Assembly (NCBI GenBank): GCA_016928955.1 | Contig: JAFGJV010000004.1 | Location: 62,001-126,000, forward strand | DNA length: 64,000 nucleotides | Reading direction: 5' to 3' | Origin: Spirochaetales bacterium | Lineage (GTDB): Bacteria > Spirochaetota > Spirochaetia > Treponematales > UBA12059 | Part shown: one piece after another, positions 26,835 through 45,521 of the stretch | Layout of the letters: each line of letters opens with the position of its first letter | How positions within the stretch are numbered: position 1 is the stretch's first letter | Translations under genes and position numbers: made by a program | The notes under the pieces: generated by a model | The model's input: the letters and a program-made list of their open reading frames with translations, nothing else | Told to the model about the DNA's origin: nothing | Database searches by the model: none

Positions 26835-26891
26835 CGGTTGTAGGAGGCCGCCTTGCACGGCCTGCCGCCGGCGTTCCTGAAAGGGGACGCA

Positions 26892-27872
26892 ATGCGCGCG
26901 TATCTTGCAGCACTCGTGTTTTTTGTTACGGCCTTTTCCTGTTCGCCGCCGCCGGATGCCGGGGACAAGGGACAGGCAGACCCGGCGCTGGTCGGTCCCG
27001 TCCGTTCGTCCGTGACGGCCGCCGAGCTTGAGTCCGAGCTGTTCGACATATGCGAGACCGAGCGCAGAAACGGCTGTCTGCAGGGTCTCGGCGCCCTGGA
27101 GTCGATGTTGCTCGAGGGCACGGGTGACGCGGCAGGGGCTTTGTACGCCGCCTCACGGGATCTCTTCGTGGCCTACGCGTATGGCGAGTCCAGCCTAGAC
27201 GACGCGCTTGGGCGGCTGGATGGCATACAGCAGGGCTGGCTGGACAGCGGCCACCAGCCGGACGCGGCGCTGGTATACGCCGTGGCGTCGGTGCGCTCGG
27301 CCCTTGTTGGGGACTGGGAACCGGGAAAGGCACCCCGGACGGCCACGGGACCGGAGAGTCCGGACTCTTTCCGGGCTTGGCTGTCCCTGGCCTACCGCAT
27401 CCAGAACGGCGTGGCCACATCCGAGGAAATCCGGCGCTACTCGGCCATGCAGGCCCGGTACTCGTCCTTTCCCCCGTACTGGCGGGTGTTCACCCTGGCA
27501 GGCTTGAACCAGGAATTTTCGGTCGACTCGGCGGAACGCTGCATACGGCTGGCACCCCACGGTCCCTATGCAGAGCTGTCCCGCCATTCCCTCGCGTCCA
27601 ACTTTGGCCTGCCCGACGGATCGGGCAAAGCCGTGCTGACGAGCGGCGAGATACAGGCCATCGTCGAGGACGCGGTCGCCAGCGGAGACTATGACCGTCT
27701 CGAAACGCTGTTTCCTACGCTTGAACTGCCCGACAATCCATCAACCATGTTCGCCGTTGGCGCTTTGAGGTCTCTGAGCGAAATCAGGGACGCGCGTTTG
27801 TGGCTTGAATCTCGACGGGCCAGGGCTCAGGGCCGGCTGGCCGAACGCCTGCGCTACGTCACGGGAGCCTGA
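26892..27872 (+). CDS. Hypothetical alpha-helical lipoprotein, first gene of the large operon
   Basis: AAGGGG RBS; hydrophobic N-terminus with AFSC lipobox. Confidence 0.7.
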   Translation: MRAYLAALVFFVTAFSCSPPPDAGDKGQADPALVGPVRSSVTAAELESELFDICETERRNGCLQGLGALESMLLEGTGDAAGALYAASRDLFVAYAYGESSLDDALGRLDGIQQGWLDSGHQPDAALVYAVASVRSALVGDWEPGKAPRTATGPESPDSFRAWLSLAYRIQNGVATSEEIRRYSAMQARYSSFPPYWRVFTLAGLNQEFSVDSAERCIRLAPHGPYAELSRHSLASNFGLPDGSGKAVLTSGEIQAIVEDAVASGDYDRLETLFPTLELPDNPSTMFAVGALRSLSEIRDARLWLESRRARAQGRLAERLRYVTGA

Positions 27873-27874
27873 CC

Positions 27875-28528
27875 ATGAGGTGGTCAGCGTATATGACGGC
27901 CGCTGTGCTCGCTGTCCTGTGCCTATCCTGCTTGTCCTGCAGGCGCAGGGACGCGGCTGCCGCCCTGGAACGGCATATATCTGCCATTTCCTCGTACCAG
28001 GAAGGCAAGCTGGATAAAGCCATAGCCGAGGCAGCCGAGGCCGAACGTATGGACGACACCCTGGTCGCGGCTTCCATTCTGAAGGGCAAGGCGGAATTTT
28101 TTTCGGACGACCTGGGATCAGCGCTCGCCTCGTTCTCCTTGGCGCTCAAGGCCCAGCCCGCCAGCATAGAAGCCCGTCTGTGGCAGGCGCGGTGCCTGCG
28201 CTACCTCAAGCGTCAGCCAGAAGCGATTGAAGCGTGCGAATCGGCCCTTGCCCTTGCGCCGAACCTGGTGGAACTCCTCAGGCTGCGCGCGGCCATGGCC
28301 ATGGATGACGACGACGTTGCCACGGCGGCGCTGTGCCTGGACAGGGCCGCGTCAAGCGCCCAGGAGTTCGCGCTGGTGTTTATGGACCGCGCCGCACTGC
28401 GCTGGGCAGCCGGGCACGCTGAAGGAGCCCGCGACGATCTGAAGATGGCACTGTCGCTCCTGCCGCCAGGATCGCCTGCCCGGAAAGGGGCAACAGATCT
28501 CTTGTCCGCGGTAGAGGCCGGGTTGTGA
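27875..28528 (+). CDS. TPR-repeat lipoprotein
   Basis: CLSC lipobox; repeated A...F/C..AL...P TPR pattern. Confidence 0.8.
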   Translation: MRWSAYMTAAVLAVLCLSCLSCRRRDAAAALERHISAISSYQEGKLDKAIAEAAEAERMDDTLVAASILKGKAEFFSDDLGSALASFSLALKAQPASIEARLWQARCLRYLKRQPEAIEACESALALAPNLVELLRLRAAMAMDDDDVATAALCLDRAASSAQEFALVFMDRAALRWAAGHAEGARDDLKMALSLLPPGSPARKGATDLLSAVEAGL

Positions 28529-29985
28529 GCGTGCGGGTCGGAGCTTGGTTCCGGAACCTTCGTTGGGCTGTCATGGCGCTCGGCGTATTTGTGTCCGGCT
28601 GCGCGTCGCTACCCGAGCCTTCATCCTTGCCCCCTGGCCTTTACGCATCTGCATGCCAGGTTCCAGAAGCCCAGGAACGCGCGCTTAGTTGCGCAGACGC
28701 CGCCCGCCTGGCAGTGGAACGGTCGGTAGAGCTCAGGGCCGAGCGGGAAGCGCTTGGGCTGAAAGAGGGCGCGTGGGCCTTGGGGTTCCGCGAGTATCTT
28801 CCCGACCTGAGCGTGTCCTGGGCCCGGGACGAACGCCTTTCTTTTTTGTCCAGCGATCAGGCAGCGTGGACCCTGTCACTCGACGTGAGCCAAACCCTGT
28901 GGGACGGCGGAAAACTCAGGCGGACGAGGACGCTCGAGTCTGCGAGCCTCTCCTGGGCCCGGGCGGAAATGGTGAAGAAGGAGCGAGCGCTTGCGGAGGC
29001 TGCAATAAGCGCGTACCGGAATGTACTGGCCGCTCGCTCGCGCCTTGACCTCCTGCGCCAATCCAACGAACGGGCGGCTCTGGAGCTTGAAACGTTGGAG
29101 TGCGAGGTGGAACTCGGGTTTGCCCGACCAGATGTTCTGGCGGACGCCGGGCATAGGCTGGACTCAATGTCATTGGACATACAGGAAGCAGATCTTGGGG
29201 TCGAGGAAGCAGAGCACCAGCTGGCCACGCTGCTTTTTTGTGACGGGCTGCCAGCGCTCGGCGAGTCCGTCAACACGGAGGAACGGGCCCTGGACGTGGA
29301 CGGGGAAAAGCTTGTGGCGGCCGCCCTTGAGAGGTCTCCGGATGTGGACGCGGCCGCCCGCCTGGTCGAGCAACGGCGGGTTGAGGCGGAGGCTGCGGCC
29401 TGGGCGTGGCTGCCCGTGGTTCGCGTGGATATCAGCGCCCGCTTCGGCGGAGACGAGTTTCCTTTGACGGACGCGGCGTGGACAGCGAACGTAACGCTGT
29501 CATACGACGGTCCCTGGCTGTCCGGACAGGCCGGCGTCAGCGGCGGTCTAGAAGGAAGGGACGCGCGGCGCTTCGGGAGTTCGTCAAGCGTATATCCCGT
29601 CCCGGCACCGGCGGAAAGCATGGCACCCGCTGGCGCGCGGCTGGCGCTGCAACAGGCCATTGACGCCTATGACTCGACCCGGCGGGCCGTCGAACTCGGC
29701 GCGCGCCTGGCCTTGACCCGGTACGGAATAGCGGCCAGACGCAGGGACAGCGCGCGTTCCGGACTGGACCTGGCCCGGCGCCAGCAGGCGTTGTGCCAGG
29801 TGCGCGTGCGCCTCGGACAGGCTACCAGGCTGGAAGCCCTGGACGCGGAACTCGCGTGCGCCAAAGCCGAACTCGGGCTCCTGGACGCGGCGATGGGGCT
29901 TCTGTCGGCACAGCGAGACCTTGAACGCATCCTCGGGCTTGATCCCGGCGCGCTGCCTGCGTTCGCAGGCGGAGTTAGGCAATGA
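28525..29985 (+). CDS. TolC/OEP family outer-membrane channel
   Basis: VSGC lipobox; two OEP repeats (YLPDLSVS...VSQTLWDGG; ALERSPDV...WLPVV); GQATRLEALDAE. Confidence 0.85.
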   Translation: MSVRVGAWFRNLRWAVMALGVFVSGCASLPEPSSLPPGLYASACQVPEAQERALSCADAARLAVERSVELRAEREALGLKEGAWALGFREYLPDLSVSWARDERLSFLSSDQAAWTLSLDVSQTLWDGGKLRRTRTLESASLSWARAEMVKKERALAEAAISAYRNVLAARSRLDLLRQSNERAALELETLECEVELGFARPDVLADAGHRLDSMSLDIQEADLGVEEAEHQLATLLFCDGLPALGESVNTEERALDVDGEKLVAAALERSPDVDAAARLVEQRRVEAEAAAWAWLPVVRVDISARFGGDEFPLTDAAWTANVTLSYDGPWLSGQAGVSGGLEGRDARRFGSSSSVYPVPAPAESMAPAGARLALQQAIDAYDSTRRAVELGARLALTRYGIAARRRDSARSGLDLARRQQALCQVRVRLGQATRLEALDAELACAKAELGLLDAAMGLLSAQRDLERILGLDPGALPAFAGGVRQ

Positions 29986-31322
29986 AACGGCTCGTGACTG
30001 CGGCGCTGGCCGTTCTTGTCGCGGCGTCGTGCGCGCGGGCCAAGCCGGCAGAGAGCGATGGCACACCAGTGGATGTTTCCGTCGCCGAGGTCGTGTCGCT
30101 TGACATAGCGGAGCTGGTCAAAGGGTATGGCAGCCTGTCGTTCCAGGACAAGGCCGACGTCACGGCGCGAGAGGAAGGCCAGCTGGTCCGTCTGCTGGCA
30201 AAAGAAGGCGACGAGGTCCGGCGCGGACAGCTCATGGCCGTACTCGAGAACAAACGCCTCGAAATAGCGGAAGAGAGCGCCAGGAACGCGGTCGACCAGG
30301 CCCAGGCCGCCAGGCAGCTGGCCCTGGCGCGCAAACAGGAGGGGGAGTTCGCAGCCGAGGCACGGGTCCTTCAGCTCGAACGGAGCGGCATGGAATTGGA
30401 GCAGGCCAAGGCGGCCCTGGCGGAGGGGCGCAGGGTGCAGGACGAGCTGGAAATTCTCCATCAGGCCGGCGGGTTGAGCGAGGAGGAAATCATAGCGGGC
30501 CGGATCAAGGTTCTCAACCTGGAGGAGAAGGCGCATCTGCTGGCCAAGGACCTGGCCATACGCGAGGTTGGGCTCCGGGACGAGGACCTTGCGGCCGCTG
30601 GCTATTCGGGTTTTACAAGCGACCAGGAACGGCGCATGGCGCTCATAGGCCTGTGTACCGCGTCGCTCTGCGCCGAGCTTATGGCGGCACAGGCGCGCCT
30701 GAGTTCGGCCACTACCGACCTCAAAGCGGTCCGGCTGTCCCTCAGCGAATTGGAGTTGCGCTCGCCCATCGACGGCGTGGTGGGAGCCGTGTATGTAAGC
30801 CCCGGAGAATGCGTCAAGCCGGACACGGCCGTCTTCACGGTAATGGACGTGGACTCCCTGCACGCAGTCATACAGGTAGACGAGGTTGAGGCCGCCGGGT
30901 TGGAGGAAGGTTGCGGGGCCGAGTTGTTTGTCGACGCCACAGGCGGCGTGTTCAAAGGCAGCATCAAGTCCATAGCTCCGATCGCCGACGCAAGATCCGG
31001 CTCGGTCACGGTCAAGGTAGCTCTGCGGGACAAGCCTGCCGGGCTCAAGCCGGGTTTGTTCGTTCGGGTGACGATACACACCGGGCGGGGACGCACGGCT
31101 CTGATCGCGCCCGATGCATGCCTCCTTGGCGAACGAGATGGGGAAGCAAGCGTGTTCGTTGTCGCAGGCGGCAGGGTGTATGAGCGCACGGTACGTCTGG
31201 GTGAGAGCCTGCCCGAAGGACGGGAGCTTGTGTCCGGCGTGTCGCGAGGAGACGTGCTGGTAAGCGGCCCGGGCCGCTGGCTGAAGGAGGGCGACCATGT
31301 ATCGATCGCGGAGGAAAGCTGA
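29982..31322 (+). CDS. Periplasmic adaptor / membrane-fusion protein with a long alpha-hairpin
   Basis: AASC lipobox; KEGDEVRRGQL and LRSPIDGVV lipoyl halves; LKPGLFVRV; ERTVRLG. Confidence 0.9.
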   Translation: MKRLVTAALAVLVAASCARAKPAESDGTPVDVSVAEVVSLDIAELVKGYGSLSFQDKADVTAREEGQLVRLLAKEGDEVRRGQLMAVLENKRLEIAEESARNAVDQAQAARQLALARKQEGEFAAEARVLQLERSGMELEQAKAALAEGRRVQDELEILHQAGGLSEEEIIAGRIKVLNLEEKAHLLAKDLAIREVGLRDEDLAAAGYSGFTSDQERRMALIGLCTASLCAELMAAQARLSSATTDLKAVRLSLSELELRSPIDGVVGAVYVSPGECVKPDTAVFTVMDVDSLHAVIQVDEVEAAGLEEGCGAELFVDATGGVFKGSIKSIAPIADARSGSVTVKVALRDKPAGLKPGLFVRVTIHTGRGRTALIAPDACLLGERDGEASVFVVAGGRVYERTVRLGESLPEGRELVSGVSRGDVLVSGPGRWLKEGDHVSIAEES

Positions 31323-32769
31323 AGGACCAACCAGCCATGAGTTGCCGGTAGCGGCCGTCATGGTGCTATGCGCCGCCATGCTATCAGCCTGTGGCCTCCT
31401 TGACCTGAGGGACGTAGGAGCATGGACGTATCCCGACACTCCGTACCAGGTTCTGAAGGACCTGGACCAAGCTGTGCGCTTCGGCTTTGACGGACAAGCA
31501 GACCGTATAGCCGCTGAGCGCTCCTTCAGGGTGACCTGTCCGGATGGCGTCGTGGACGGCGACTTTGAGTGGACGGGGGAAGCATGCGAATGGTCGCCCG
31601 TGGGCGGCTGGGAACCGTGCGTGCGCTACAGGCTGGTGTTCAGAGGCGAAATCCGGATGTCGGACGGCCGTATGGCGCGTCCCTGCGTCGACCTACCGTT
31701 CTACGCTGAGAGGGCGGGCAGGCCGCCCTTTGTCGCCGGTGCCCAACCGCTGGACGGGGCATCCGTAGGTGTATGGGGCAGCGATGCTCGTATCCTGAAA
31801 CTGGATTTTTCAGAGCCGATGGACACGGCGTCCGTATTCCGGGAGCTGTCGCTGAGTCCGGGTGTCAATGCCGATCCGCGTTGGAGCGCTGACGGAAAAA
31901 CCCTGGAGCTCGTGCTCAACGAGGCCCTCGAGCCGTGCGTGCAGTACCGGTGGAGCCTGTCCGCTGAAGCGCGTTCAGCGGACGGATCCGCTCTGGGTGG
32001 CGATGTGACGGGTTCCTTTGTCAGCGACGCTGACCGGACGCCTCCATACGTGGCCAGCGCGGTTCCGGTGGGTCTCACGGGAGGACGTTGGCTGGAGCTC
32101 GGCGCGACCCTCGATGAATTGAAAACGGGCCAGTCGCTTGGCGTCAGGTTCAGCGAGGCCATGGATCCCCACTCGGCGGCGGCCTCAGTCCGCGTCGGGC
32201 CAGGAGTGTCGGGAAACTGCGCCGCAGCAGAGCCGGATTTGGTCGTATTCACCCCCGCGCAGGAATGGCCCCCCGAGTCGGCCCTGGTCCTTACCGTATC
32301 CGGGGACGCGGAGGACGCTTCCGGCCTGCCCATGGGCAACGAGTGGACGCAGGTCTTTCGTCCTGCCGTTCCGTACCTGCGCGTGCTTTCCATGCTCGAT
32401 CAGGACGGCTCGCTGCTGGAACAACCGAGTGGCGGAGAACTTTTCAGGGTGGCCGTCGGCCCCGAGCCCGATGGTGATTTTTACCTGAGCGTGAGATTTT
32501 CCGGAGCGTTCGACGACGCGGGCAAGGTCCTTGCCGTTGAGGATATCGCGCTGGCTGCTTTGTTCCCGTCCACGTTGCCCGCTCCGCGCCTTACCTGCGC
32601 CGAGTGGGTGTCGGACGACACGATCGCGCTCTCATGGGAAGGCTTGTCTGCCGGGAACTCCGACTGCCCCCACTATTATCGGCTCAGGATCACCGGTGGA
32701 ACTGGTGGCATACAAGATAGGGAAACACACGTCATGGACGGCGACCTGTCCCTGTACCTGGAGGGCTAG
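31297..32769 (+). CDS. Lipoprotein with tandem Ig-like (Big_5/SbsA-like) domains
   Basis: LSACG lipobox; repeated P.DG....L.FSEPMD, FSEAMDP and D..G..L motifs; exact start uncertain. Confidence 0.75.
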   Translation: MYRSRRKAEGPTSHELPVAAVMVLCAAMLSACGLLDLRDVGAWTYPDTPYQVLKDLDQAVRFGFDGQADRIAAERSFRVTCPDGVVDGDFEWTGEACEWSPVGGWEPCVRYRLVFRGEIRMSDGRMARPCVDLPFYAERAGRPPFVAGAQPLDGASVGVWGSDARILKLDFSEPMDTASVFRELSLSPGVNADPRWSADGKTLELVLNEALEPCVQYRWSLSAEARSADGSALGGDVTGSFVSDADRTPPYVASAVPVGLTGGRWLELGATLDELKTGQSLGVRFSEAMDPHSAAASVRVGPGVSGNCAAAEPDLVVFTPAQEWPPESALVLTVSGDAEDASGLPMGNEWTQVFRPAVPYLRVLSMLDQDGSLLEQPSGGELFRVAVGPEPDGDFYLSVRFSGAFDDAGKVLAVEDIALAALFPSTLPAPRLTCAEWVSDDTIALSWEGLSAGNSDCPHYYRLRITGGTGGIQDRETHVMDGDLSLYLEG

Positions 32770-32771
32770 CC

Positions 32772-34298
32772 ATGAGCAAGCGAGCGATGAGCGCTCTGGC
32801 GGCGGCCGCCCTGATCCTGTTCGGGTCCTGCGGCCTCCTCATCGACAGGCCTTTTGCCGTCAGCGCGTGGATGCCGGGGCGCGAGAGGATGGACGCGGCA
32901 AGCCTTCACGTCGTGAGCGTAAGCTTTTCCATGGACCCCGACAGGCCCCTTGCCGAGTCGTGCTTTTCCTTGGCCGAGGATGGGCGGCCCATAAGCGGGT
33001 CTTGTTCCTGGGAGGGCACAACACTGGCGTTCAGGCCGTACGGCGGGTTTGTCGAGGACGCGGATTATGTCCTGACCGTGTCCCAGGAGGCTCGGACTGA
33101 GGACGGGCTGTCATTGGCCTCGGACTTTGAGGCACGGTTCACGACCAAGGCCGAAGGCGAGCGCCCGAGGATAACGGGATCTGTGCCGGTAGATGGCGGC
33201 GTGCTCGCAGGACGCATGGATACGGTGACAGTGAGCTGCTCGGAGAGCGTCGATCCGCTTACGTTCAGGTCTTCCGTATCCCTGTCGCCTGGCGTCAAGG
33301 GCTACTGGTTCCTGTCAAACGGGGGCCGCGACATGCTTTTCCAGCCCTTCGAGCCGTTTACTGTCGGCGAACGATACAGCATCAGGGTGTCATCGGGGCT
33401 GCTCAGCCAATTGGGATACGAGCTCGGTTATTCGTGGGAAGCTGGCTTTACGGCGGGCTGCGACCTTGCGCCGCCTGAACTGGCATCAGCCGAGGCTGTG
33501 GACCAAGCCGGACTCGGCATGCTGTCGCTCGTGCAGGATGAGGACGGCGATACGTTGTGGACGGTAAACGCCGGTTGGGAAACAGCATGGTGGCTCAGAC
33601 TCAAGTTTTCGGAGAGTGTCGACCTGGCCAGCGTGGCGAGCCATACCAGGCTTGAAGGCGGGATCGCGTTCAAGCCGGAAACGGAGGCAGGTCTGTCCGA
33701 TTCTGCATTATTCCTTCCTACGGTTCAACCGGTGTGGGGCCAGGAGTTTACCGTTACGATCTTGCCCGGCATTGAAGACGCATACGGGAACCAGAGCGAC
33801 ATCCAATACGTGTTCCGCTGCGTCGCGGACGGACCCGGATCAAAACCGCCGCGGCTTATAGGCGTTCGTCTGCCCCTGGCTCCTGGCGCAACGGATCCAT
33901 CCTACCGGAAGCTCAAGGCCTATCCCTGGGCCGAGCAGTTCGCCAGCCTCGTGCTCGATACGTGCCCGGAATCGTTTCCCATAGGCGAGGCCGTATCCGT
34001 GCCCGTCGAGCTGTACGTAGAAGTAGCCCAGGGTGCGTCCCTGGACCTGTTATCTATCATGGAGTCGTTCAGGATAACGGGCGGAAACGACGCCCTGGAT
34101 TTTACGCCGACCCGCGTGAGGGCAGGCGGTCTTGACTGGGAAGCGCCAGAATGGCCGGGGGCTCTCCTTGCAACGGTGGACGGCACACTTGTGAACCACG
34201 CCAATTCGGGAATCATCACCCTCAGCGTGGCGGAGGGGTTTCATGACAGTGTCGGAAACTCGAACGCGGAGTCCCAGGATTTGCTCCTATTGAAGTAG
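32772..34298 (+). CDS. Lipoprotein with tandem Ig-like (Big_5/SbsA-like) domains
   Basis: FGSCG lipobox; FSMDPD, P.DG...SESVDP, FSESVD, IEDAYGN, HDSVGN, FTT motifs. Confidence 0.78.
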   Translation: MSKRAMSALAAAALILFGSCGLLIDRPFAVSAWMPGRERMDAASLHVVSVSFSMDPDRPLAESCFSLAEDGRPISGSCSWEGTTLAFRPYGGFVEDADYVLTVSQEARTEDGLSLASDFEARFTTKAEGERPRITGSVPVDGGVLAGRMDTVTVSCSESVDPLTFRSSVSLSPGVKGYWFLSNGGRDMLFQPFEPFTVGERYSIRVSSGLLSQLGYELGYSWEAGFTAGCDLAPPELASAEAVDQAGLGMLSLVQDEDGDTLWTVNAGWETAWWLRLKFSESVDLASVASHTRLEGGIAFKPETEAGLSDSALFLPTVQPVWGQEFTVTILPGIEDAYGNQSDIQYVFRCVADGPGSKPPRLIGVRLPLAPGATDPSYRKLKAYPWAEQFASLVLDTCPESFPIGEAVSVPVELYVEVAQGASLDLLSIMESFRITGGNDALDFTPTRVRAGGLDWEAPEWPGALLATVDGTLVNHANSGIITLSVAEGFHDSVGNSNAESQDLLLLK

Positions 34299-40300: not shown

Positions 40301-43300
40301 GCAGAGCGCGCGGCGCTTGCCGCCGACAGCGCGGCAAAAGGAGGGATGCTCAGCCTGGTGGGCGAGGACGCGGAGCACGGCGCCCGGGCCCTGGACCTCA
40401 ACCAGGTAGGAGAACTCAGGCTTGCGTGCGACCCTGACGGCCTTCTAGAAAAGGCCCTTGCGTCGGCCGGCATCTCAGGCATGGCAAAAGCGCTCGCGTG
40501 GTCGGGAACGGCCGGACAGACAACTGGCGTCCGCACGGACGATGGGTTTGCCTGCTCCTGGGATTCGGCCGCCATCCAGGCTAGCGCCCGAAGCTACGCG
40601 GAAGATTCCCGGCAACGCCTGAGCACGGGACAGGCCAAGCTGATGGCCAGGAGCGCGCGGGACGCCGTGGACCTTGCCGTGAGGGGTCTGGAGGATTCGG
40701 TACGGCAAGCGAATTTCCAGTTCGAGGACAGCATGGACGAGCTCTTCATGCGACAAGGGGGCTGGTCCAGGTACGGGCGGCTGTACGTGAAGGACGTGTT
40801 GAGCCATTCGACGCTCTTTGACTACGCGATCACCGAGCGGGCCAGCGTGGATACCTACCGCGAATACAGGATGGACGCGTGGCGCCCGTCCACGGATTTG
40901 TCCGACGAGGCGAGCGCGGGCCTGGACGGAGCGGGACTCCAGGAGCTCGTGAGGCAGGCCCAGGAGGAAGTGGAAAAGAGGGCGGGCACGGTATTCGGCA
41001 CGGAAGACGATGAGACGGAAGATGCAATAGCCAGCCGTACGCGTCTGTTCAGGTTTTACAGGGAAGAGCGCTATGTGAGCGGGATGGAAACCATCACCGT
41101 GGAGGATAGGAACGGCGACCTGCGGACCATAGAGCGGCCTGTTTACTCAACCAGAGTGCTCGAAGACGAAGGCAAGCTCCAGAAACGCACCACGGGCGCT
41201 GGTCTGTTCGGCGCCTGGCTTGGGTATGATCCAGTGCTTTCCGACCTCCCCGATGTGGACGAGGGTTTGGACGACACCTTCCGCGACCAAGGCTCCGGCG
41301 AACTCGGCCGGCTCATGAGCCAGTACTTGTATTGGAGCCTCAAAGAGGGCAAGGGCCTGGGCGAGTTGGCCAAGCCAATGTACGAGAAGGACCTCTGGGA
41401 TGACAGGGGCAGCTGGCTTCAGGCACCCAACCTGAGGGGAATAGCTGACATCGGCGTTACGATAGGGGCGGCCGTACTGTCCGGCGGCACGAGCCTCGGC
41501 GCCATGCTTGTGTCCGCGGGCATCAACCTGGCCGACGACGCCGTGTTTGGCGCCCTGGACGTGGCCACAGGATACAAAACCTGGGAGGAGGCCGGGCTGG
41601 AGTTCGGGAAAAAAGCCGTGTCGTCAGCCATGGGCGCGGTGGTCGGCTCCACGGGAGGCCTTTCGTCCCTCGTCGACCCGTCGCTCGGCTTTGGCCATGT
41701 GCTTGCGTCCACCATGTTGGACGAGGTCCAGACCGTCGGCATGAGCTTGGCCACGTCCGCGATAAACGCCGTGCAATGGGACGGATCGGGCCTGGTATGG
41801 TCCAGCGACATGTTTTCTGCGGGCGTGACGGGCGGACTGAGCGGCGCCTTGGCCGGTGCCGCTGGCGGAATAACAGGCGGCGTCATGAACCTTGGCCTGG
41901 AAGGTTTTGTGTCCGACCTGGCATCCGACGCACGGACCTTGTCGGCCGTTCTTGGCGGCCTTGCAGAACAAGGCGTAAGCTACGCCATGGGCGGGACGTC
42001 CAGCTTCAACCTCTTCAACCTTGGCGTATTCGGGTGGAAGGGCGAGGATGGGAATGCCATACGGACGGGCCTTCTGGAATTGAGCATAGGAGGCGACGGC
42101 ATCGGCCTGGGCTTGGGACAAGGCGGCATGGATATGAGCCTGGGCACCATAGCGAGCGCCCTGCGGGGCACGGAGGCGTGGCTGGTGAACGCCCGCATGG
42201 CCTTTTCCGGTCAGGACGAGGCCGGCAAATACGCAAGCGCACTGCGATCGTTGTATTCGGCAGGCAAGGCGTCGGGTCCGGACAGAACGCGCTTTGAACA
42301 GATCATCTCAGGCAAGGCGAATATTCTTGAGGACGCGGAAGGCGCTTTCTCCGCGCTGACCAAGTACGACACGACGAGCGATACCTACACCATAACCCTG
42401 GGCAAGAACGTCCTTGAGGACTCGTCCCGTTTCGGACTTAACATAGTGCTGGCCCACGAAGCACGGCGCAACGGACTGAATGACGGGGAGGACGGACAGA
42501 CCAAGGAGACGCAAGACGCCGTCATTGGCCATATAGAATTGGCGGCTGCCTTAGGCGATACCTACGGTATGAACGCACTAACGGAACGACAGAGGGCGGA
42601 GGTAACTGCGCTCAATGAGGCCCGCAAGGGCTATGTGGCCGGCATGCTGGACGTGTTCGCCAGCTACGCGTCCGAGGACGACTATTGGCGGCTTACCGTG
42701 GACGGCAACCTGATGTACGACGGCTTCAAGGAATTGCGCAGGGAATTCTACCTTGCGAACGGGGAAGTGGGGGTGGAGTTTGTCGAGGGGAGCCAGGAAG
42801 AGACGACCCGAGGCGGAGCCTTGGTGCACTATCTGGGGGAGGGCAGGGCGCGGACCCTGCTTGGCGGATCCGCCGACTCGCTGGGTACGTATGACCTAGA
42901 GTCGCTCAAGTCGGTCATGCCGTCGCTTACGCAGGAATCCCTCTCGGCTTTGAAAGACAACGGCGGGACCCTGGCTGACCTCAACCTGACCCAGGCCCAG
43001 AAAGACCAGTTACTCGGCGAGTCGCTCATGAGGAAATACGGCATGGCGTTTGACCAGGACAAAGGATGGTCGGGCAAGGAGACCGTGTCGTTCTCGCTTA
43101 CCGACGAGGATGTGGGCATGATAGGCATAGCCCGCGTGGGCGCTAACCAGTACGAGCGCTTTACCGTATCCATGATCGTGCGGAGGCATCCGGACGCTTT
43201 CGATACGTGGAAAGACGGTTCGGCTACGAATGACTACAACGTCCGCGACAACAGCGACATAGCTTTTTACAAGTGGGCCCTGCCCGGCGAGCGTCTGGCA

Positions 43301-43810
43301 AACGGCCAGGAATTCGAGCGTTACGCTCCCCAGTTCCAGTTTACCAGTATCGCCAATACGCTCGGCGGAGAGAACGACCGGATATGGGAGGTGTCGATCG
43401 AGGACAAGGATAAAGTGCCCCACACCTATCTCAGCAACACCTTGGCCAGTGGCACCTTCAATATGAGGCTGATACCGTCAACAAGCGGGAGATATGGTGT
43501 CGACACGGTAGGTTTGCTTTCAAACGCCACGACCTTGGCTGGCGAATATATCGGTATTGACGGAAGAGTGAAACCGGAGGATAAACTATGGATATTCCAT
43601 AACTTTGGTACGAATGCCACTTCGCTTGGATGCATGGGCCCTATGAGTGATGATATCGATTATGGAAATAATGAAGAAGCATGGCATATTGTTGAAGAGA
43701 TAGGTTCTGGTGCTTGGAAAATGTATCAAATATTGCAAAAACTGCGATCTTGGAATATTTACAATGGTTTAGTTTTTTCTGGATATATTTCGGGAAAGGT
43801 GAAGCCATGA
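34367..43810 (+). CDS. Giant (3147 aa) exported protein, putative polymorphic toxin
   Basis: AAGGAG RBS; Sec signal peptide (VSA/QT); long acidic Ala-rich helical body; Gly-rich hydrophobic segment; HEARR; low-GC C-terminus with HNFGTNATSLGC. The ORF is certain; the function is inferred. Confidence 0.7.
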   Translation: MTYLDTRRIAAAFMAVIMALAGVSVSAQTDERMLEEVFSQNLEQCFAEADGARDPVAWIRCAQGGLEAAVAGWEAAALAVYEGGPSFEGDKDRIQRLGQEELDRCFASWLMDRFFGGEAAKLRASVASAAERESRRRLYVTDDSSELCLAPNGDPIIQRPQGSIEAEGQAWQSALNAYAKDATDSFLAAINGLGQDALSRLAPGERERFRDIFAKSSLRESERCGTLVQELMRREESLFVARLGSDRWSLRSQSEGESADNALLEACEEAEAACDAGLSALALRIEEAKAGAGDLALEGADWLEQFQEQFERGLDAWERAEERFMTRRLEWEASAASAFDAGMTAWADAYDRLEMASQAWEEQASALLVTGEAAFKEASVALADDIEKARALFEFSAAQRQSSGSEKAAALVDIYVQSTRSMSSAEEGAKYWLGILFDRVGMDDPPEFGSQELETFLELRKILLSTPVYAADAYDAQREALEESERWLGMYGDFRNRCTEARNSLENEYTLALGGEALGAVLSDGTGPGEFCLDEYQVALLKARAVRAYWDRRASMAELVQAYAEDLSSGRATEAESDDALAAAGIEYASALDAYRQAVGAVTDAGSAIQDSRSALASALDELDRAGSALEALNREYSRALAAIALGGAGYLRDEAEALYQAMAELETEEAAEREADKLAAFLAAGSAYGVGATLESASVAFDYLVRGRSGEPSLAELDAAWRKVWDPSGSDVPDHVDQFGLSTEDPEYHVLARMLKGLETADPADGAYLKAGEDAIRAVVRTAAARKNAALKQRLDDLALIAAADLRAWYAERAGRSLPEDIETALAGDLERAERELLKRRLELELGALKQDGSSSLDAFWAGNPEDRERALVVLESLAQGLEGHWDDGAGAFDTVLAGLCAAEEGVELFIMGQGFYSVDGLDLGTCFANEELTGCLQANGRYGAYHEWAAYAPAVEAEHRRMALSIMSDALSDLGMSSPDEALGELGLPGAAALSAALNSEPEMAIEKTLDLMIAGQGARSLAPGWMSGVLDSWVAAVAESAASWALASGVGLVSVAQADSGIRDARLALDQALAGANPDMELEPLARALARAQALRVLAITAERIETARAEAEEDGTLHWRQGLCSPCLDASDDDAGEQASAPALAGSSSWIEGYALDSADALDMAARAAGGALRQWRDEDFIAGVRTDTALEASYRHLLAGIASYLTDPSAAYSSAYAIVLPSRLDDAFTAASGEWNSVLAGKARLRASFANAVNDWALACDPVALKDALPSMEICLNAARDSYELARTSWEQATSSFTAAGAAYETARQAAASLYTGLEDARFELEARKALQRWASTAYLSSEGERCVAVYRDPAAELAWCRDRLARSTEAVDVLAGLYAGDLSERPYDDPEYQAALAEFKARQTDAMLMAKAEATLSKTWTALSAERASALRAYWDIINGGESGMPFAQELPFEDYQALDTLSTAGWNDVLTVGADGRLALSRDADNRLVLNDADGARILADYFKPTEEGGPSRFQEALGNFSARIASYNLDGEQLYSWGLARDYLLSSVLRANPDAAVLSQDGPVSDSRLHDAINAVSVYYEPASNMLDEFRAQGLDVLRRRAWDKLGQEQKADLEMLVTLELSGSCQVTPLLNAIKDATRAAEYRYMEARFDHLIDQVSFILWPPNLVRYLYWKDARDSILSGPCDGFTREMDQGAKALNARASEMAKAWNRIQGVEKQLAALSLDGAGDVGDHIARAVKAAGGWSDEDVAGLKSACARQQAAIQEGSSFPELVAGMSERCSQAAADATKTLEAVHSRKRADSNQLVADFQACYDGYLSGDTDEGAFRAAAALAYGAGSPSWSSHLRSLGAWTLDGLLSSPDTDPEFLEKAARSMVSLIERAWAERVAGERAVLADEYSLAFEDLAERWNAWNTAAGLILSRGRADFMQARSDMAERAEAWAAAFDKSYREKTLAWNAAALDAADSKLAWAERAALAADSAAKGGMLSLVGEDAEHGARALDLNQVGELRLACDPDGLLEKALASAGISGMAKALAWSGTAGQTTGVRTDDGFACSWDSAAIQASARSYAEDSRQRLSTGQAKLMARSARDAVDLAVRGLEDSVRQANFQFEDSMDELFMRQGGWSRYGRLYVKDVLSHSTLFDYAITERASVDTYREYRMDAWRPSTDLSDEASAGLDGAGLQELVRQAQEEVEKRAGTVFGTEDDETEDAIASRTRLFRFYREERYVSGMETITVEDRNGDLRTIERPVYSTRVLEDEGKLQKRTTGAGLFGAWLGYDPVLSDLPDVDEGLDDTFRDQGSGELGRLMSQYLYWSLKEGKGLGELAKPMYEKDLWDDRGSWLQAPNLRGIADIGVTIGAAVLSGGTSLGAMLVSAGINLADDAVFGALDVATGYKTWEEAGLEFGKKAVSSAMGAVVGSTGGLSSLVDPSLGFGHVLASTMLDEVQTVGMSLATSAINAVQWDGSGLVWSSDMFSAGVTGGLSGALAGAAGGITGGVMNLGLEGFVSDLASDARTLSAVLGGLAEQGVSYAMGGTSSFNLFNLGVFGWKGEDGNAIRTGLLELSIGGDGIGLGLGQGGMDMSLGTIASALRGTEAWLVNARMAFSGQDEAGKYASALRSLYSAGKASGPDRTRFEQIISGKANILEDAEGAFSALTKYDTTSDTYTITLGKNVLEDSSRFGLNIVLAHEARRNGLNDGEDGQTKETQDAVIGHIELAAALGDTYGMNALTERQRAEVTALNEARKGYVAGMLDVFASYASEDDYWRLTVDGNLMYDGFKELRREFYLANGEVGVEFVEGSQEETTRGGALVHYLGEGRARTLLGGSADSLGTYDLESLKSVMPSLTQESLSALKDNGGTLADLNLTQAQKDQLLGESLMRKYGMAFDQDKGWSGKETVSFSLTDEDVGMIGIARVGANQYERFTVSMIVRRHPDAFDTWKDGSATNDYNVRDNSDIAFYKWALPGERLANGQEFERYAPQFQFTSIANTLGGENDRIWEVSIEDKDKVPHTYLSNTLASGTFNMRLIPSTSGRYGVDTVGLLSNATTLAGEYIGIDGRVKPEDKLWIFHNFGTNATSLGCMGPMSDDIDYGNNEEAWHIVEEIGSGAWKMYQILQKLRSWNIYNGLVFSGYISGKVKP

Positions 43811-44997
43811 AAGCCAAAAGTTGGGTTGTAGTTGGTATTGTAATTTCAGTTGCGTCTTGTTCACAAAAGCCAGGGATATCTGACGATAACCAGGTAGTTC
43901 TTTATGAGGCTGTTAATAAAAATGATGTGGTTAATCAGTTTGTTAGCATAGAAGAAAAAGATTTGCCTGAATTGTTTATAGGAATAAATTATTTCCCTGG
44001 AGATTCAGTTTGGCTAGATACAGAAGGTGAACTAAAAACCCAGCCAATAATAAATAATAGTTTTCAAAGCTTTCCGTGGACCATGTACAAAAAAAATATG
44101 CTTATTCATTTAAGCTCTACTGGTAGAGTATCTATAGAGAGGTTTAGCGCTATTTATGATCAAGATGGCTATTTTGTATTTCAACAAACACAGGGTTCAC
44201 AAAGCAAGGGTTACAATGAATATTTAATCATGGGTGGAGGATATTTTCTCAATCAGTTTTATTATAAATCTGGTCTAGATGGAAAAACTGCAACTGGAGG
44301 ATATATAAACTTAAATGAATTTTCAGATAAGAGAGATAATAGCGACATAGAAGATATTTTGTCTGGAGAATTTAGTAACGATTATAATTCAGGCAGCTTC
44401 GCAGGGTATCTTCTTGATGACGGCATCCAAAGTGTGTCAGCCTCATCCAGCCTGGCTGAAAGCGCCCAGGCGGGCGGATTTGTCTACTCGCCTGAAAAGA
44501 TGCTCAAAAAATACGCATTCATCGACCACCCCGAGGGCGGGTCCATGGAGTATCGCAACTACCTCCGGTGCTGGGCCGAGGGAGTGGTCGGGCCGGGACT
44601 TGGCGAGTACGTGGATATAGTGTTCTCTCGGGACAGCGACCGGCTCATCGTGCTCAATGGTTACGTGGACATACTCAGGCGCTCTTTATACAAGGATAAC
44701 AGCAGGCCCAAAGTAGTTGAACTGCGGAGCGAGAGCCCGGAATTTACCATGGAGTACGAATTTGAGGATGTGGTCAAATTTCATGAAATTGCGTTGCCGG
44801 AGCCCACGCGTTCTCTCAGAATGACCATCAAGGACGTGTATCCGGGCAGGAAGTATGATGACACTTGCGTGAGCGCCGTCATGCTACCCCAGGAACGCTG
44901 GCGTAGCGAGGACGAGGAGCGCGCAGAGCTGTTTGCGTACTTGGTGGAAATAGGGGCATGGGAAACGATACGGGCCGAGCTGGAAGCAGGCCAGTAG
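43807..44997 (+). CDS. Lipoprotein with a C-terminal NADase-type glycan-binding (discoidin-like) domain; putative immunity protein
   Basis: ATGA overlap with the giant gene stop; VASC lipobox; WAEGVVGPGLGE, LNGY, YKDNSRPK, IKDVYPGRKYDDTCVS. Confidence 0.75.
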   Translation: MKAKSWVVVGIVISVASCSQKPGISDDNQVVLYEAVNKNDVVNQFVSIEEKDLPELFIGINYFPGDSVWLDTEGELKTQPIINNSFQSFPWTMYKKNMLIHLSSTGRVSIERFSAIYDQDGYFVFQQTQGSQSKGYNEYLIMGGGYFLNQFYYKSGLDGKTATGGYINLNEFSDKRDNSDIEDILSGEFSNDYNSGSFAGYLLDDGIQSVSASSSLAESAQAGGFVYSPEKMLKKYAFIDHPEGGSMEYRNYLRCWAEGVVGPGLGEYVDIVFSRDSDRLIVLNGYVDILRRSLYKDNSRPKVVELRSESPEFTMEYEFEDVVKFHEIALPEPTRSLRMTIKDVYPGRKYDDTCVSAVMLPQERWRSEDEERAELFAYLVEIGAWETIRAELEAGQ

Positions 44998-45021
44998 CCT
45001 GTTTAGGAAGATGAGGACACG

Positions 45022-45057
45022 ACAAACGGCGCGTTCCTTATTGGACGCGCCGTTTGT
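45022..45057. terminator. Bidirectional terminator-like hairpin between convergent genes
   Basis: Perfect 13-bp stem ACAAACGGCGCGT / ACGCGCCGTTTGT. Confidence 0.75.
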
Positions 45058-45068
45058 GTGAGTTGCGC

Positions 45069-45437
45069 TCAGAACCAGCCGTCGTCGTCGCTTTCGTCCC
45101 AACGTATGGCTGTTATGTAAGCTTCCATCGAAGAATCAAAAGTCTGGAAGAAGGTCTCAGTTCCTTCATAGGTTTCACCCGCTGACAGGTTGACACTATA
45201 CGTCCACTATTCGTCTACCCACCCCGTAGCATCATAGAGCTCGATGAGCACTGATACGTTTTCTATTTTTTCATAACCAGTATTATAGAGTGTGTACAGG
45301 ACATTCGTCGAGCTTCCACCGTTAGTTATGCCATCAATTGTAAAAGAGACGCCGTAATCCGGAAAATCGCAGGAGAACGACACGAGGATGGTCAGCGCGG
45401 CCAGGACGGCAAACAGGACATACTTTGAGCGTTTCAT
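45069..45437 (-). pseudogene. FxLYD-like lipoprotein interrupted by an in-frame TAG at 45207-45209
   Basis: GGAGG RBS; SFSC lipobox; IELYDATG; frame continues 45 codons (WTYSVNLSAGETYEG...DDDGWF) to TGA. Confidence 0.65.
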
Positions 45438-45521
45438 GGTTAGCCTCCACTAGGAAGAAATATAGAGCACATCCGGCATGAAAACATGAAATACCGGGAA
45501 AAATTACAGACCGGAGGCGGG

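Follow-up and report, generated by a model that had tools for sequence, protein, structure and literature searches.

A strain-variable, AT-rich segment across a giant spirochaete protein gene and its neighbouring lipoprotein gene: candidate allelic core of a toxin/immunity-type module

The DNA analysed here, the window, is a stretch of 64,000 nucleotides (nt) from a Spirochaetales bacterium (GenBank assembly GCA_016928955.1, contig JAFGJV010000004.1, positions 62,001 to 126,000 of the forward strand). Within it, the gene for a giant protein overlaps the start of a lipoprotein gene, and one AT-rich segment covers the end of the first gene and about half of the second (Table 1). Strain-variable exchange of this segment is well supported by comparison with related proteins and metagenome contigs. 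We consider it probable that a module of the polymorphic toxin/immunity type has its allelic core in this segment, versions of which are swapped by homologous recombination. A toxin role for the C-terminal tip of the giant (its last 353 amino acids, aa) and an immunity role for the lipoprotein are likely, given the predicted fold of the tip, its conserved His and Cys, the linkage of the two genes and their family context. The system sits in an as yet undescribed spirochaete family.

An AT-rich segment that varies between strains

The segment at 43481-44410 has a GC content of 36.3%, against 63.5% genome-wide in the source genome (59 contigs, 99.5% completeness). In 200-bp windows, GC is 0.57-0.70 upstream, starts to fall at ~43450, stays at 0.31-0.37 over 43600-44400 and is back at 0.56-0.60 over 44400-44700 (0.595 at 44400-44599). 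Measured against 900-bp windows of the whole 2.87-Mb assembly (mean GC 0.636, standard deviation 0.043), the segment lies about 6 standard deviations below the mean, and just 26 of 28164 such windows have a GC of 0.36 or less. The GC content of third codon positions (GC3) is 0.75 in the body of the giant and 0.37 in its last 109 codons. In the lipoprotein gene it is 0.24 up to codon 201 and 0.68 from codon 202 to codon 396. Since the tip residues upstream of the segment keep a host-like GC3 of 0.67-0.83, only the segment is anomalous at synonymous sites. The right composition junction is sharp (~44392-44410) and the left one graded (~43457-43640), and both transitions fall inside the open frames of two intact genes that overlap in the letters ATGA. 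These breakpoints in GC and GC3 confirm the initial annotation, which had described an AT-rich patch with both transitions inside intact frames. Its estimate of the first ~200 aa of the lipoprotein also holds (aa 1 to ~201), whereas the ~120 aa that it assigned to the end of the giant come down to 109 (aa 3039-3147).

The same segment is where alleles diverge. A partial giant of 2141 aa (P0009) and a lipoprotein of 402 aa (P0003) are encoded by adjacent genes on one 18177-bp contig, labelled as a Spirochaetia metagenome-assembled genome. From aa 1006 to 3015 of the giant, 28-30 of 30 residues match P0009 in each 30-aa bin; in the bins from aa 3016, 3046, 3076 and 3106 the counts are 26, 19, 18 and 22, and of the final 12 aa half (6/12) match. 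In the alignment, the first mismatch at the end of the tip is aa 3039, with 244/244 matches over tip residues 1-244 and 68/108 (63%) over residues 245-353. The lipoprotein shares 50 of 177 residues with P0003 over aa 22-198 (28%) and 192 of 198 over aa 199-396 (97%). Because this drop in identity coincides with the composition patch, the divergent block is the AT-rich block. Identity between orthologues is therefore not uniform across the patch, and the swap reading put forward in the initial annotation withstands this comparison. Both H3078 and C3089 of the giant are retained in the P0009 allele.

Further alleles appear in metagenomes. Parts of 42800-45000 occur in 24 run rows, two of which contain all sampled words and may be the source. 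Four runs were compared over 42500-45500 as assembled Logan contigs, not reads: X1, a possible source sample, and X3 (sludge), X4 and X7 (wastewater and digester) from three other studies. The evidence rests on these four and takes no account of the word shares (0.19-0.47) of the other runs. In X1, a single 3361-bp contig spans the whole interval with 1 difference and bridges both junctions; it shows continuity and, as X1 may be the source sample, is not independent confirmation. In X3, a 5586-bp contig (depth 31.7) that differs from 42500-43481 at 4 of 982 nt stops at 43481. A 994-bp contig (depth 27.2) aligns with 43452-43663 at 45 differences before joining 44386, and a second joint links 43481 to 44410. 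Contigs identical to the window allele at 43921-44071 and 44189-44405 have a depth of only 2-2.9, so that the window allele is a minor variant beside others in the X3 community. Of the 36 listed differences between the X3 alternative allele and the window at 43486-43618, 16 are GC>AT and 10 AT>GC, and the alternative allele is therefore AT-rich there as well. The right flank in X3 is more diverged (25 differences in 374 nt, 44410-44783), meaning that the "constant" lipoprotein domain is relatively conserved across alleles, not identical.

Contigs of X4 and X7 match the window from 44410 on, differing at 4 of 415 nt in X4 and at 40 of 1091 nt in X7. Before 44410 they carry unlike sequence, the last 30 letters of which are the same in both and encode the P0003 motif S-L-E-A-D-L-F-H-A-Y. 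Another X4 contig matches 43502-43611 with 3 differences and then switches to a tip variant unlike that of the window or P0009. Across X3, X4 and X7, breaks and joints lie at 43481, 43611, 43663, 44386 and 44410; the right breakpoint (44386-44410) is common to the three studies, and left breakpoints occur at 43481 and ~43611. At least three alleles exist, the window's included. Because the X4 form matches the window up to 43611, left crossovers occurred at two or more sites. The initial annotation had proposed that a toxin tip and an immunity region were swapped as one unit between conserved anchors. Exchange between such anchors is upheld by P0009/P0003 and the recurrent breakpoints, but the X4 form, with its switch at 43611, leaves exchange as one unit unproven. 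A scan of metagenome contigs gave no DNA of other alleles, its 13 loci all being at or below 35% identity.

Repeats at the junctions were also recorded. The 9-mer ATGAGGCTG occurs three times in the 64-kb window, each time in the patch or at its edge: first 10 nt ahead of the 43481 breakpoint, then inside the patch, and finally in inverted orientation 28 nt past 44410. The copies sit in different codon phases. Shuffled sequences average 0.70 copies, with three copies reached in 4 of 100, and the 9-mer was spotted post hoc. Otherwise the junctions hold just short repeat pairs near chance level. A 16-nt direct repeat (14/16 identical; 43247-43262 and 44335-44350), translated as D-N-S-D-I in the tip as well as in the lipoprotein N-half, is probably a chance match. 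An invertible segment is unsupported, as the metagenome contigs compared contain no strand-switch joints.

A YkuD-like tip and a two-part lipoprotein

The giant begins with a signal-like segment, recognised by eye, and matches no Pfam or NCBIfam family at an expect value (E) of 0.1 or below, including RHS/YD repeats, a TPS domain with FHA repeats and a VENN-type junction. Its aa 2100-2800 fall into unnamed clusters only in the ESM Atlas (best score 0.89). Homologues that span the full length, 2286-3699 aa in size, are found in Spirochaetia-labelled records as well as in G036, a complete genome from another family of the same order. A search of 1.84 billion representatives gave 65 homologues of the tip at E <=0.001. 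In almost all cases they lie at the C-terminus of the protein, the proteins being 74-4165 aa long. In an alignment of 31 of these (A2), tip residue H284 never varies and C295 is kept in at least 90% of the sequences.

Structure prediction provides a candidate function for the tip. The AlphaFold2 model (mean predicted local distance difference test score, pLDDT, 87; predicted template modelling score 0.85) has a helical part followed by a beta-rich domain. A Foldseek search of the PDB returned Csd6 (E 0.011) and Pgp2 as the best matches, with top E values of 0.011-0.027. A structure search independent of Foldseek returned Pgp2 (6xj7, Z 8.7), Csd6 (4xzz, Z 8.6), LdtA (Z 7.7) and Bd1075 (7o21, Z 7.4) and also recovered Tlde1a, which is a type VI secretion system (T6SS) effector (7uma, Z 6.0, 116 residues aligned). 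The matches cover model residues ~137-353, a domain of ~217 aa. The 20 highest structural rows span Z 4.8-8.7; 14 of them bear L,D-transpeptidase in their title and one has a different title (4xxt), and unrelated rows have Z <=3.2. Pgp2, Csd6, Bd1075 and DpaA, also among these 20, are YkuD-fold enzymes, and so is Tlde1a by the title of its paper. With 19 of 20 rows of L,D-transpeptidase type (14 by title), assignment of the model to the YkuD fold is good, although membership of the YkuD enzyme family is unproven.

YkuD enzymes carry a catalytic His and a Cys within an (S/T)-x-G-C motif. On the model, the patch corresponds to the C-terminal half of the YkuD-like domain (tip residues 245-353), including the conserved His and the Cys of S-L-G-C, and is thus the candidate active-site half. 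The initial annotation had taken the AT-rich part of the giant for a toxin tip; it covers not the whole tip but this half of the ~217-aa domain, and its replacement is homologous (63% identical) rather than another toxin type. A canonical YkuD (PF03734) gene was not found in the source genome and is present in 4 of the 31 genomes of the order searched, source genome included.

The lipoprotein leader ends in a lipobox, V-A-S-C, identified by eye, with the Cys codon at 43858-43860. Its C-terminal half contains a discoidin-type domain that scores well above the family cut-offs (NF047619, 85 bits against 38; PF25302, 56.4 bits against 27). The N-half is always the least conserved part at deep divergence, with 15-24% identity compared with 32-41% for the C-half, and its aa 20-200 found no usable match in the ESM Atlas. 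A complex prediction for tip residues 97-353 with lipoprotein aa 22-396 (score 0.00, mark 0.32) is evidence neither way.

Family context, proposed mechanism and alternatives

Additional insight comes from relatives of the source genome. Of 40 relatives searched, G036 has eight matches in one 26-kb stretch. Its giant of 3699 aa aligns with aa 2-2824 of the window giant at 28-34% identity and then differs. After it come six orphan open reading frames (ORFs), which start at the equivalents of aa 1818, 2176, 2176, 2569, 2569 and 2569. They keep the shared pre-tip region, and behind each lies a small gene whose product starts with a signal or lipoprotein leader. Homology of orphans 1, 2 and 4 ends at aa 2779-2793, and the other three orphans carry the window's tip family. 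Consistently, matches in the genomes G005 and G003 and at four places in G036 cover query residues 1-232 to 1-277 only, that is, to giant aa ~2794. A PF25302 lipoprotein follows 3 of the 3 tips of the window's family in G036, and behind the 4 of 4 other tip units lie different genes, of 155 aa, 449 aa (with SH3_3), 266 aa and 205 aa. Tip type and downstream gene type are coupled. GC alternates along the array in a sawtooth, from 0.55-0.67 in the shared 5' parts to 0.27-0.43 in the tips and downstream genes. In one of 13 other giants scanned, a Peptidase_M15_4 match covers residues 3097-3125 of 3127, and the orphan with the SH3_3 gene downstream has a sub-threshold M23 match; both M15_4 and M23 are peptidoglycan peptidase families.

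In G016, a genome of another genus with a GC of ~0.69, a starting GC of 0.65-0.72 drops to 0.44-0.53 across the N-half of the lipoprotein and rises again to 0.61-0.66 in its discoidin part, so that the patch design recurs in milder form. Together, the comparisons reveal exchange at two levels, one nested in the other. Exchange between genera affects the entire tip (~350 aa) together with the downstream gene and takes place at the pre-tip junction (~aa 2794), whereas the unit that changes within this species is smaller.

Three side observations concern these loci. The G016 PF25302 lipoprotein gene (L053, G016:C155, 3075-4200), which lies beside a family tip, is frameshifted at about codon 215 into ORFs of 235 and 145 aa and could be a pseudogene or an assembly error. 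In G036, orphans 2, 5 and 6 (L031/L032, G036:C1:1202949-1222000) open with nearly the same leader, G-G-P-P-R-F-F-K-T-G-P-P-E-I-V-R-K-P-P-S, suggesting that the 5' edge of these cassettes carries a repeated DNA segment. The array also contains a gene for a YhgA-like transposase (L032 6395-7522, minus strand).

The mechanism that we infer from these data, including toxicity, a peptidoglycan target, a neutralising lipoprotein N-half, the export route and the donor, is as follows. The giant, with its signal-like N-terminus, would be exported by Sec, and its YkuD-fold tip probably acts on peptidoglycan. The lipoprotein is translationally coupled to the giant and probably protects the producer in the periplasm. 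Its variable, allele-specific N-half probably inhibits the cognate tip by binding the active-site half, and the constant discoidin domain may hold the lipoprotein on glycan. Strains of this species carry different versions of the segment made up of giant aa 3039-3147, with H3078 and C3089, and lipoprotein aa 1 to ~201. Crossovers would take place in blocks conserved among the alleles, namely P-S at 43481, F-H-N-F-G at ~43611 and L-L-D-D-G-I-Q at ~44400 (44386-44410). Such crossovers would move both halves together, and specificity would map to the two co-varying halves. Given its low GC3, the segment appears to derive from a low-GC cassette pool and not to have adjusted to the host; the persistent AT-richness of the alleles could reflect repeated import from such a pool or another bias.

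A wider proposal is tentative. In it, Spirochaetia would possess a hitherto undescribed family of giant polymorphic toxins with peptidoglycan-directed tips (YkuD-like, M15, M23-like), encoded at the end of a conserved TPR-TolC-MFP-Big_5(-RND) operon that perhaps exports the giant (MFP, membrane-fusion protein; RND, resistance-nodulation-division). The immunity lipoproteins would have two parts, with the discoidin domain parking a swappable inhibitor at the cell wall, and a sub-genic specificity unit would be traded via intragenic anchors.

Several results weigh against the proposed toxin/immunity module. On the side of the tip, the best Z of 8.7 lies within the tool's range for chance best matches, leaving the argument to the coherence of 19 of 20 rows. 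The tip has no match to Pfam YkuD (PF03734) at E <=0.1, and comparison of A2 with two YkuD domains by hhalign was not significant (E 0.12 and 0.093); the A2 profile likewise drew chance-level rows only from PDB sequences. The His-to-Cys spacing is 11 residues in the tip and 14-17 in YkuD enzymes. On the side of the lipoprotein, the N-half is modelled at pLDDT <50, and its aa 20-200 alone found no match at E <=0.01 in a protein search. PF25302 lipoproteins also occur in G026, G030 and G038, where no tip of the giant's family was found, and the PF25302 family is therefore not exclusively tip-linked. The P0009/P0003 allele is known as protein only, allele GC and exact crossovers being known from contig ends. 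Protein searches, the metagenome contig scan and the search with the lipoprotein N-half found no donor. Orphan tip and lipoprotein cassettes, which the initial annotation had suggested looking for in the source genome, were not found there, nor were paralogues, with the 600-aa tip, the lipoprotein, the whole giant and the G036 cassettes as queries. As a side observation, other low-GC islands are present in the source genome (C13 1-5800, C24 1-2600, C23 43001-45800, several on C39, and C1 49901-52900; minimum 900-bp GC 0.31-0.43), and none of them has a gene related to the giant, tip, lipoprotein or G036 cassettes.

Among alternative explanations, the one that survives best, although we regard it as unlikely, retains the swapping of a cognate pair and assigns it another function. 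The giant would be a surface or periplasmic protein for wall remodelling or adhesion, the lipoprotein would work with it as a partner, for instance as regulator, anchor or glycan-binding adaptor, and their co-varying interface would diversify under pressure from phages, predators or antibodies. Csd6, Pgp2 and Bd1075 are stand-alone L,D-carboxypeptidases that trim the cell's own peptidoglycan, with Csd6 and Pgp2 acting in cell shape, and the rank of these two as best structural matches argues for such a role. The presence of PF25302 lipoproteins in several genomes without a giant-family tip points the same way, the discoidin domain suggests glycan binding over inhibition, and no secretion-system marker of known antibacterial weapons appeared among the 11 neighbouring window genes scanned. 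However, housekeeping enzymes are seldom found on proteins of 3000 aa with swappable C-termini or in promoterless arrays of orphan tips, and each orphan tip of G036 has its own type-matched exported gene. Other tips of the family also resemble peptidoglycan peptidases (M15_4 and, weakly, M23), and several alleles in one community fit strain-level antagonism.

Divergence in place, through fast evolution under relaxed or positive selection with AT-biased mutation and without recombination or import, is very improbable. It would account for the low conservation of the lipoprotein N-half at deep divergence and for the graded left composition boundary. It does not sit well with flanks that are 97-100% identical in protein and 99-99.6% in DNA (4/982 nt and 4/415 nt) beside an adjoining segment that cannot be aligned, or with a change in GC3 from ~0.24 to ~0.68 inside ~20 codons. 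In addition, the right breakpoint is the same in three runs and one form switches on the left at 43611, which are marks of crossover, and the X4 form already suggests mosaic alleles. Least probable of all is an assembly chimera in which a contig from a low-GC organism was joined into the genome: the foreign-looking composition and the 59-contig assembly would permit it, but both genes stay in frame with domains continuous across both junctions, the separately built X1 contig bridges these junctions, X3, which belongs to another study, contains exact pieces of the patch, and P0009/P0003 share the architecture.

Relation to known systems and neighbouring features

AT-rich tips beside a GC-rich core, as at this locus, are a trait of E. 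coli Rhs proteins, for which our literature search yielded no source. Polymorphic toxin systems such as Rhs and CdiA have a conserved exported body, an exchangeable C-terminal toxin and a protective gene directly downstream (PMC3482391, in the portion of the text consulted), and orphan toxin/immunity arrays are described for Rhs and contact-dependent inhibition loci (PMC3150448, likewise in part). The spirochaete module resembles Rhs and CdiA in its large exported body, its alternative tips, a type-matched gene next door and orphan cassettes that keep a piece of the body, the orphans here being those of G036. It differs from them in that Pfam gives no RHS/YD or FHA repeat, no VENN-type junction and no marker of type V, VI or VII secretion systems (T5SS, T6SS, T7SS), and in that the unit exchanged within this species is shorter than the toxin domain and stops within the gene downstream.

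Tlde1 of Salmonella, paired with the periplasmic immunity protein Tldi1, is an antibacterial T6SS effector directed at peptidoglycan, with a modified YkuD (L,D-transpeptidase) fold (PMC9638812, consulted in part). The tip shares with it a YkuD-type fold in a putative peptidoglycan-directed role, and Tlde1a is among its structural matches. Tlde1 is, however, a small stand-alone T6SS cargo and the tip is the end of a 3147-aa protein; no T6SS genes were seen among the window genes scanned, and sequence similarity between the two is undetectable. Csd6, Pgp2 and Bd1075, the best structural matches to tip residues ~137-352, share only 7-9% identity with it and are likewise stand-alone enzymes, for which the sources consulted describe no polymorphism.

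E-colicins have a short, highly divergent block across the immunity-contacting C-terminal part of the toxin and the immunity gene, between near-identical flanks. For nuclease colicins and S-pyocins, diversification of the immunity region by recombination is described in the part of the source available (PMC5821083). The present locus is similar in having a divergent block over the toxin C-terminal part and the next gene between near-identical flanks. In colicins, however, the whole small immunity gene is in the block and another gene serves as the downstream anchor, whereas here the anchor is the immunity candidate's own constant domain. A parallel to this anchor is provided by the T7SS immunity genes esaG and tipC, where internal conserved blocks mediate homologous recombination and yield chimeric immunity genes (PMC9484751, as far as the excerpt goes). 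The arrangement, which the initial annotation had called an unusual design, is therefore less unprecedented than it had seemed. The difference is that tandem immunity paralogues recombine in esaG and tipC, and that part of a giant and part of a lipoprotein gene, with no paralogue in the genome, are exchanged here.

A limited open-access keyword search found no paper on the giant family, which is weak evidence that it is unpublished. Nor did a limited keyword search find a description of an exchange unit that cuts both a catalytic domain and a two-domain immunity candidate. The system would add a new carrier family in Spirochaetia, 2300-3700 aa long and invisible to Pfam and NCBIfam, with a six-cassette orphan array in one genome, and a YkuD-fold tip at the end of a giant protein that is recognisable by structure alone. 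It would also add a natural exchange unit below gene size: one half of a catalytic domain plus one half of a two-domain lipoprotein, the constant domain of which provides the downstream crossover site. Such a sub-genic unit would mark the residues that carry cognate specificity, and two natural alleles of it are available on backgrounds that are 97-100% identical. If sub-genic trading is true, new toxin/immunity specificities would arise without replacement of either gene. As alleles coexist in sludge and wastewater communities, the locus could serve as a marker of strain-level antagonism.

Table 1. Features of the giant and lipoprotein locus, in window coordinates
Feature	Position	Strand	Basis or remark
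TPR, OEP (TolC-like), HlyD-type membrane-fusion protein and two Big_5 proteins	27875..34298	+	Upstream of giant; order kept in G036 and G005
Giant gene, 3147 aa	34367..43810	+	ORF; TGA stop
Conserved pre-tip region, giant aa 2548-2794	42008..42748	+	Homology among giants and orphan cassettes stops here when tips differ
Helical N-terminal part of tip module, giant aa 2795-2930 (predicted)	42749..43156	+	AlphaFold2; helices at tip residues 21-96
YkuD-fold (L,D-transpeptidase/carboxypeptidase-like) domain, giant aa 2931-3147 (predicted)	43157..43807	+	Structure searches
AT-rich strain-variable cassette	43481..44410	+	Giant aa 3039-3147 and lipoprotein aa 1 to ~201; GC, GC3, identity drop, contig breaks
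Invariant His codon, giant H3078 = tip H284	43598..43600	+	Alignment A2
Near-invariant Cys codon, giant C3089 = tip C295, motif S-L-G-C	43631..43633	+	Alignment A2
Lipoprotein gene, 396 aa	43807..44997	+	ATG at 43807 overlaps TGA of giant
NADase-type glycan-binding (discoidin, F5/8 type C) domain, lipoprotein aa 251-359	44557..44883	+	NF047619, PF25302
ATGAGGCTG copies	43463-43471, 43904-43912, 44438-44446	+, +, -	Repeat search
Inverted repeat, perfect 13 nt with 10-nt loop	45022..45057		Directly after lipoprotein stop; terminator-like hairpin
Small lipoprotein-like ORF	45069-45437	-	Lipobox-like S-F-S-C (by eye); one in-frame stop after 76 codons

The operon upstream of the giant is possibly a dedicated export machine. 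In three genomes from two families (window 26853-34298; L054 in G036; L055 in G005), the gene order before the giant is a ~337-aa protein of no named family, TPR, OEP, MFP, Big_5 and Big_5. G036 and G005 have two AcrB-like RND genes between Big_5 and the giant, a pair that the window lacks at this place. The source genome holds a paralogue of the operon on contig C26 (2677-16565: 337-like, OEP, MFP, two Big_5 and two RND genes), with no giant after it in the remaining 1.6 kb of the 18159-bp contig. Among 11 neighbouring genes scanned in the window, there were no T5SS, T6SS or T7SS markers and no PAAR, VgrG or Hcp, T6SS not having been searched genome-wide.

Downstream of the lipoprotein gene, the small ORF on the opposite strand has a GC of 0.43-0.50. 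A joint in X3 from 45104 to 45354 skips 249 nt of it, indicating that this region is also strain-variable, and it could be a decayed extra cassette gene.

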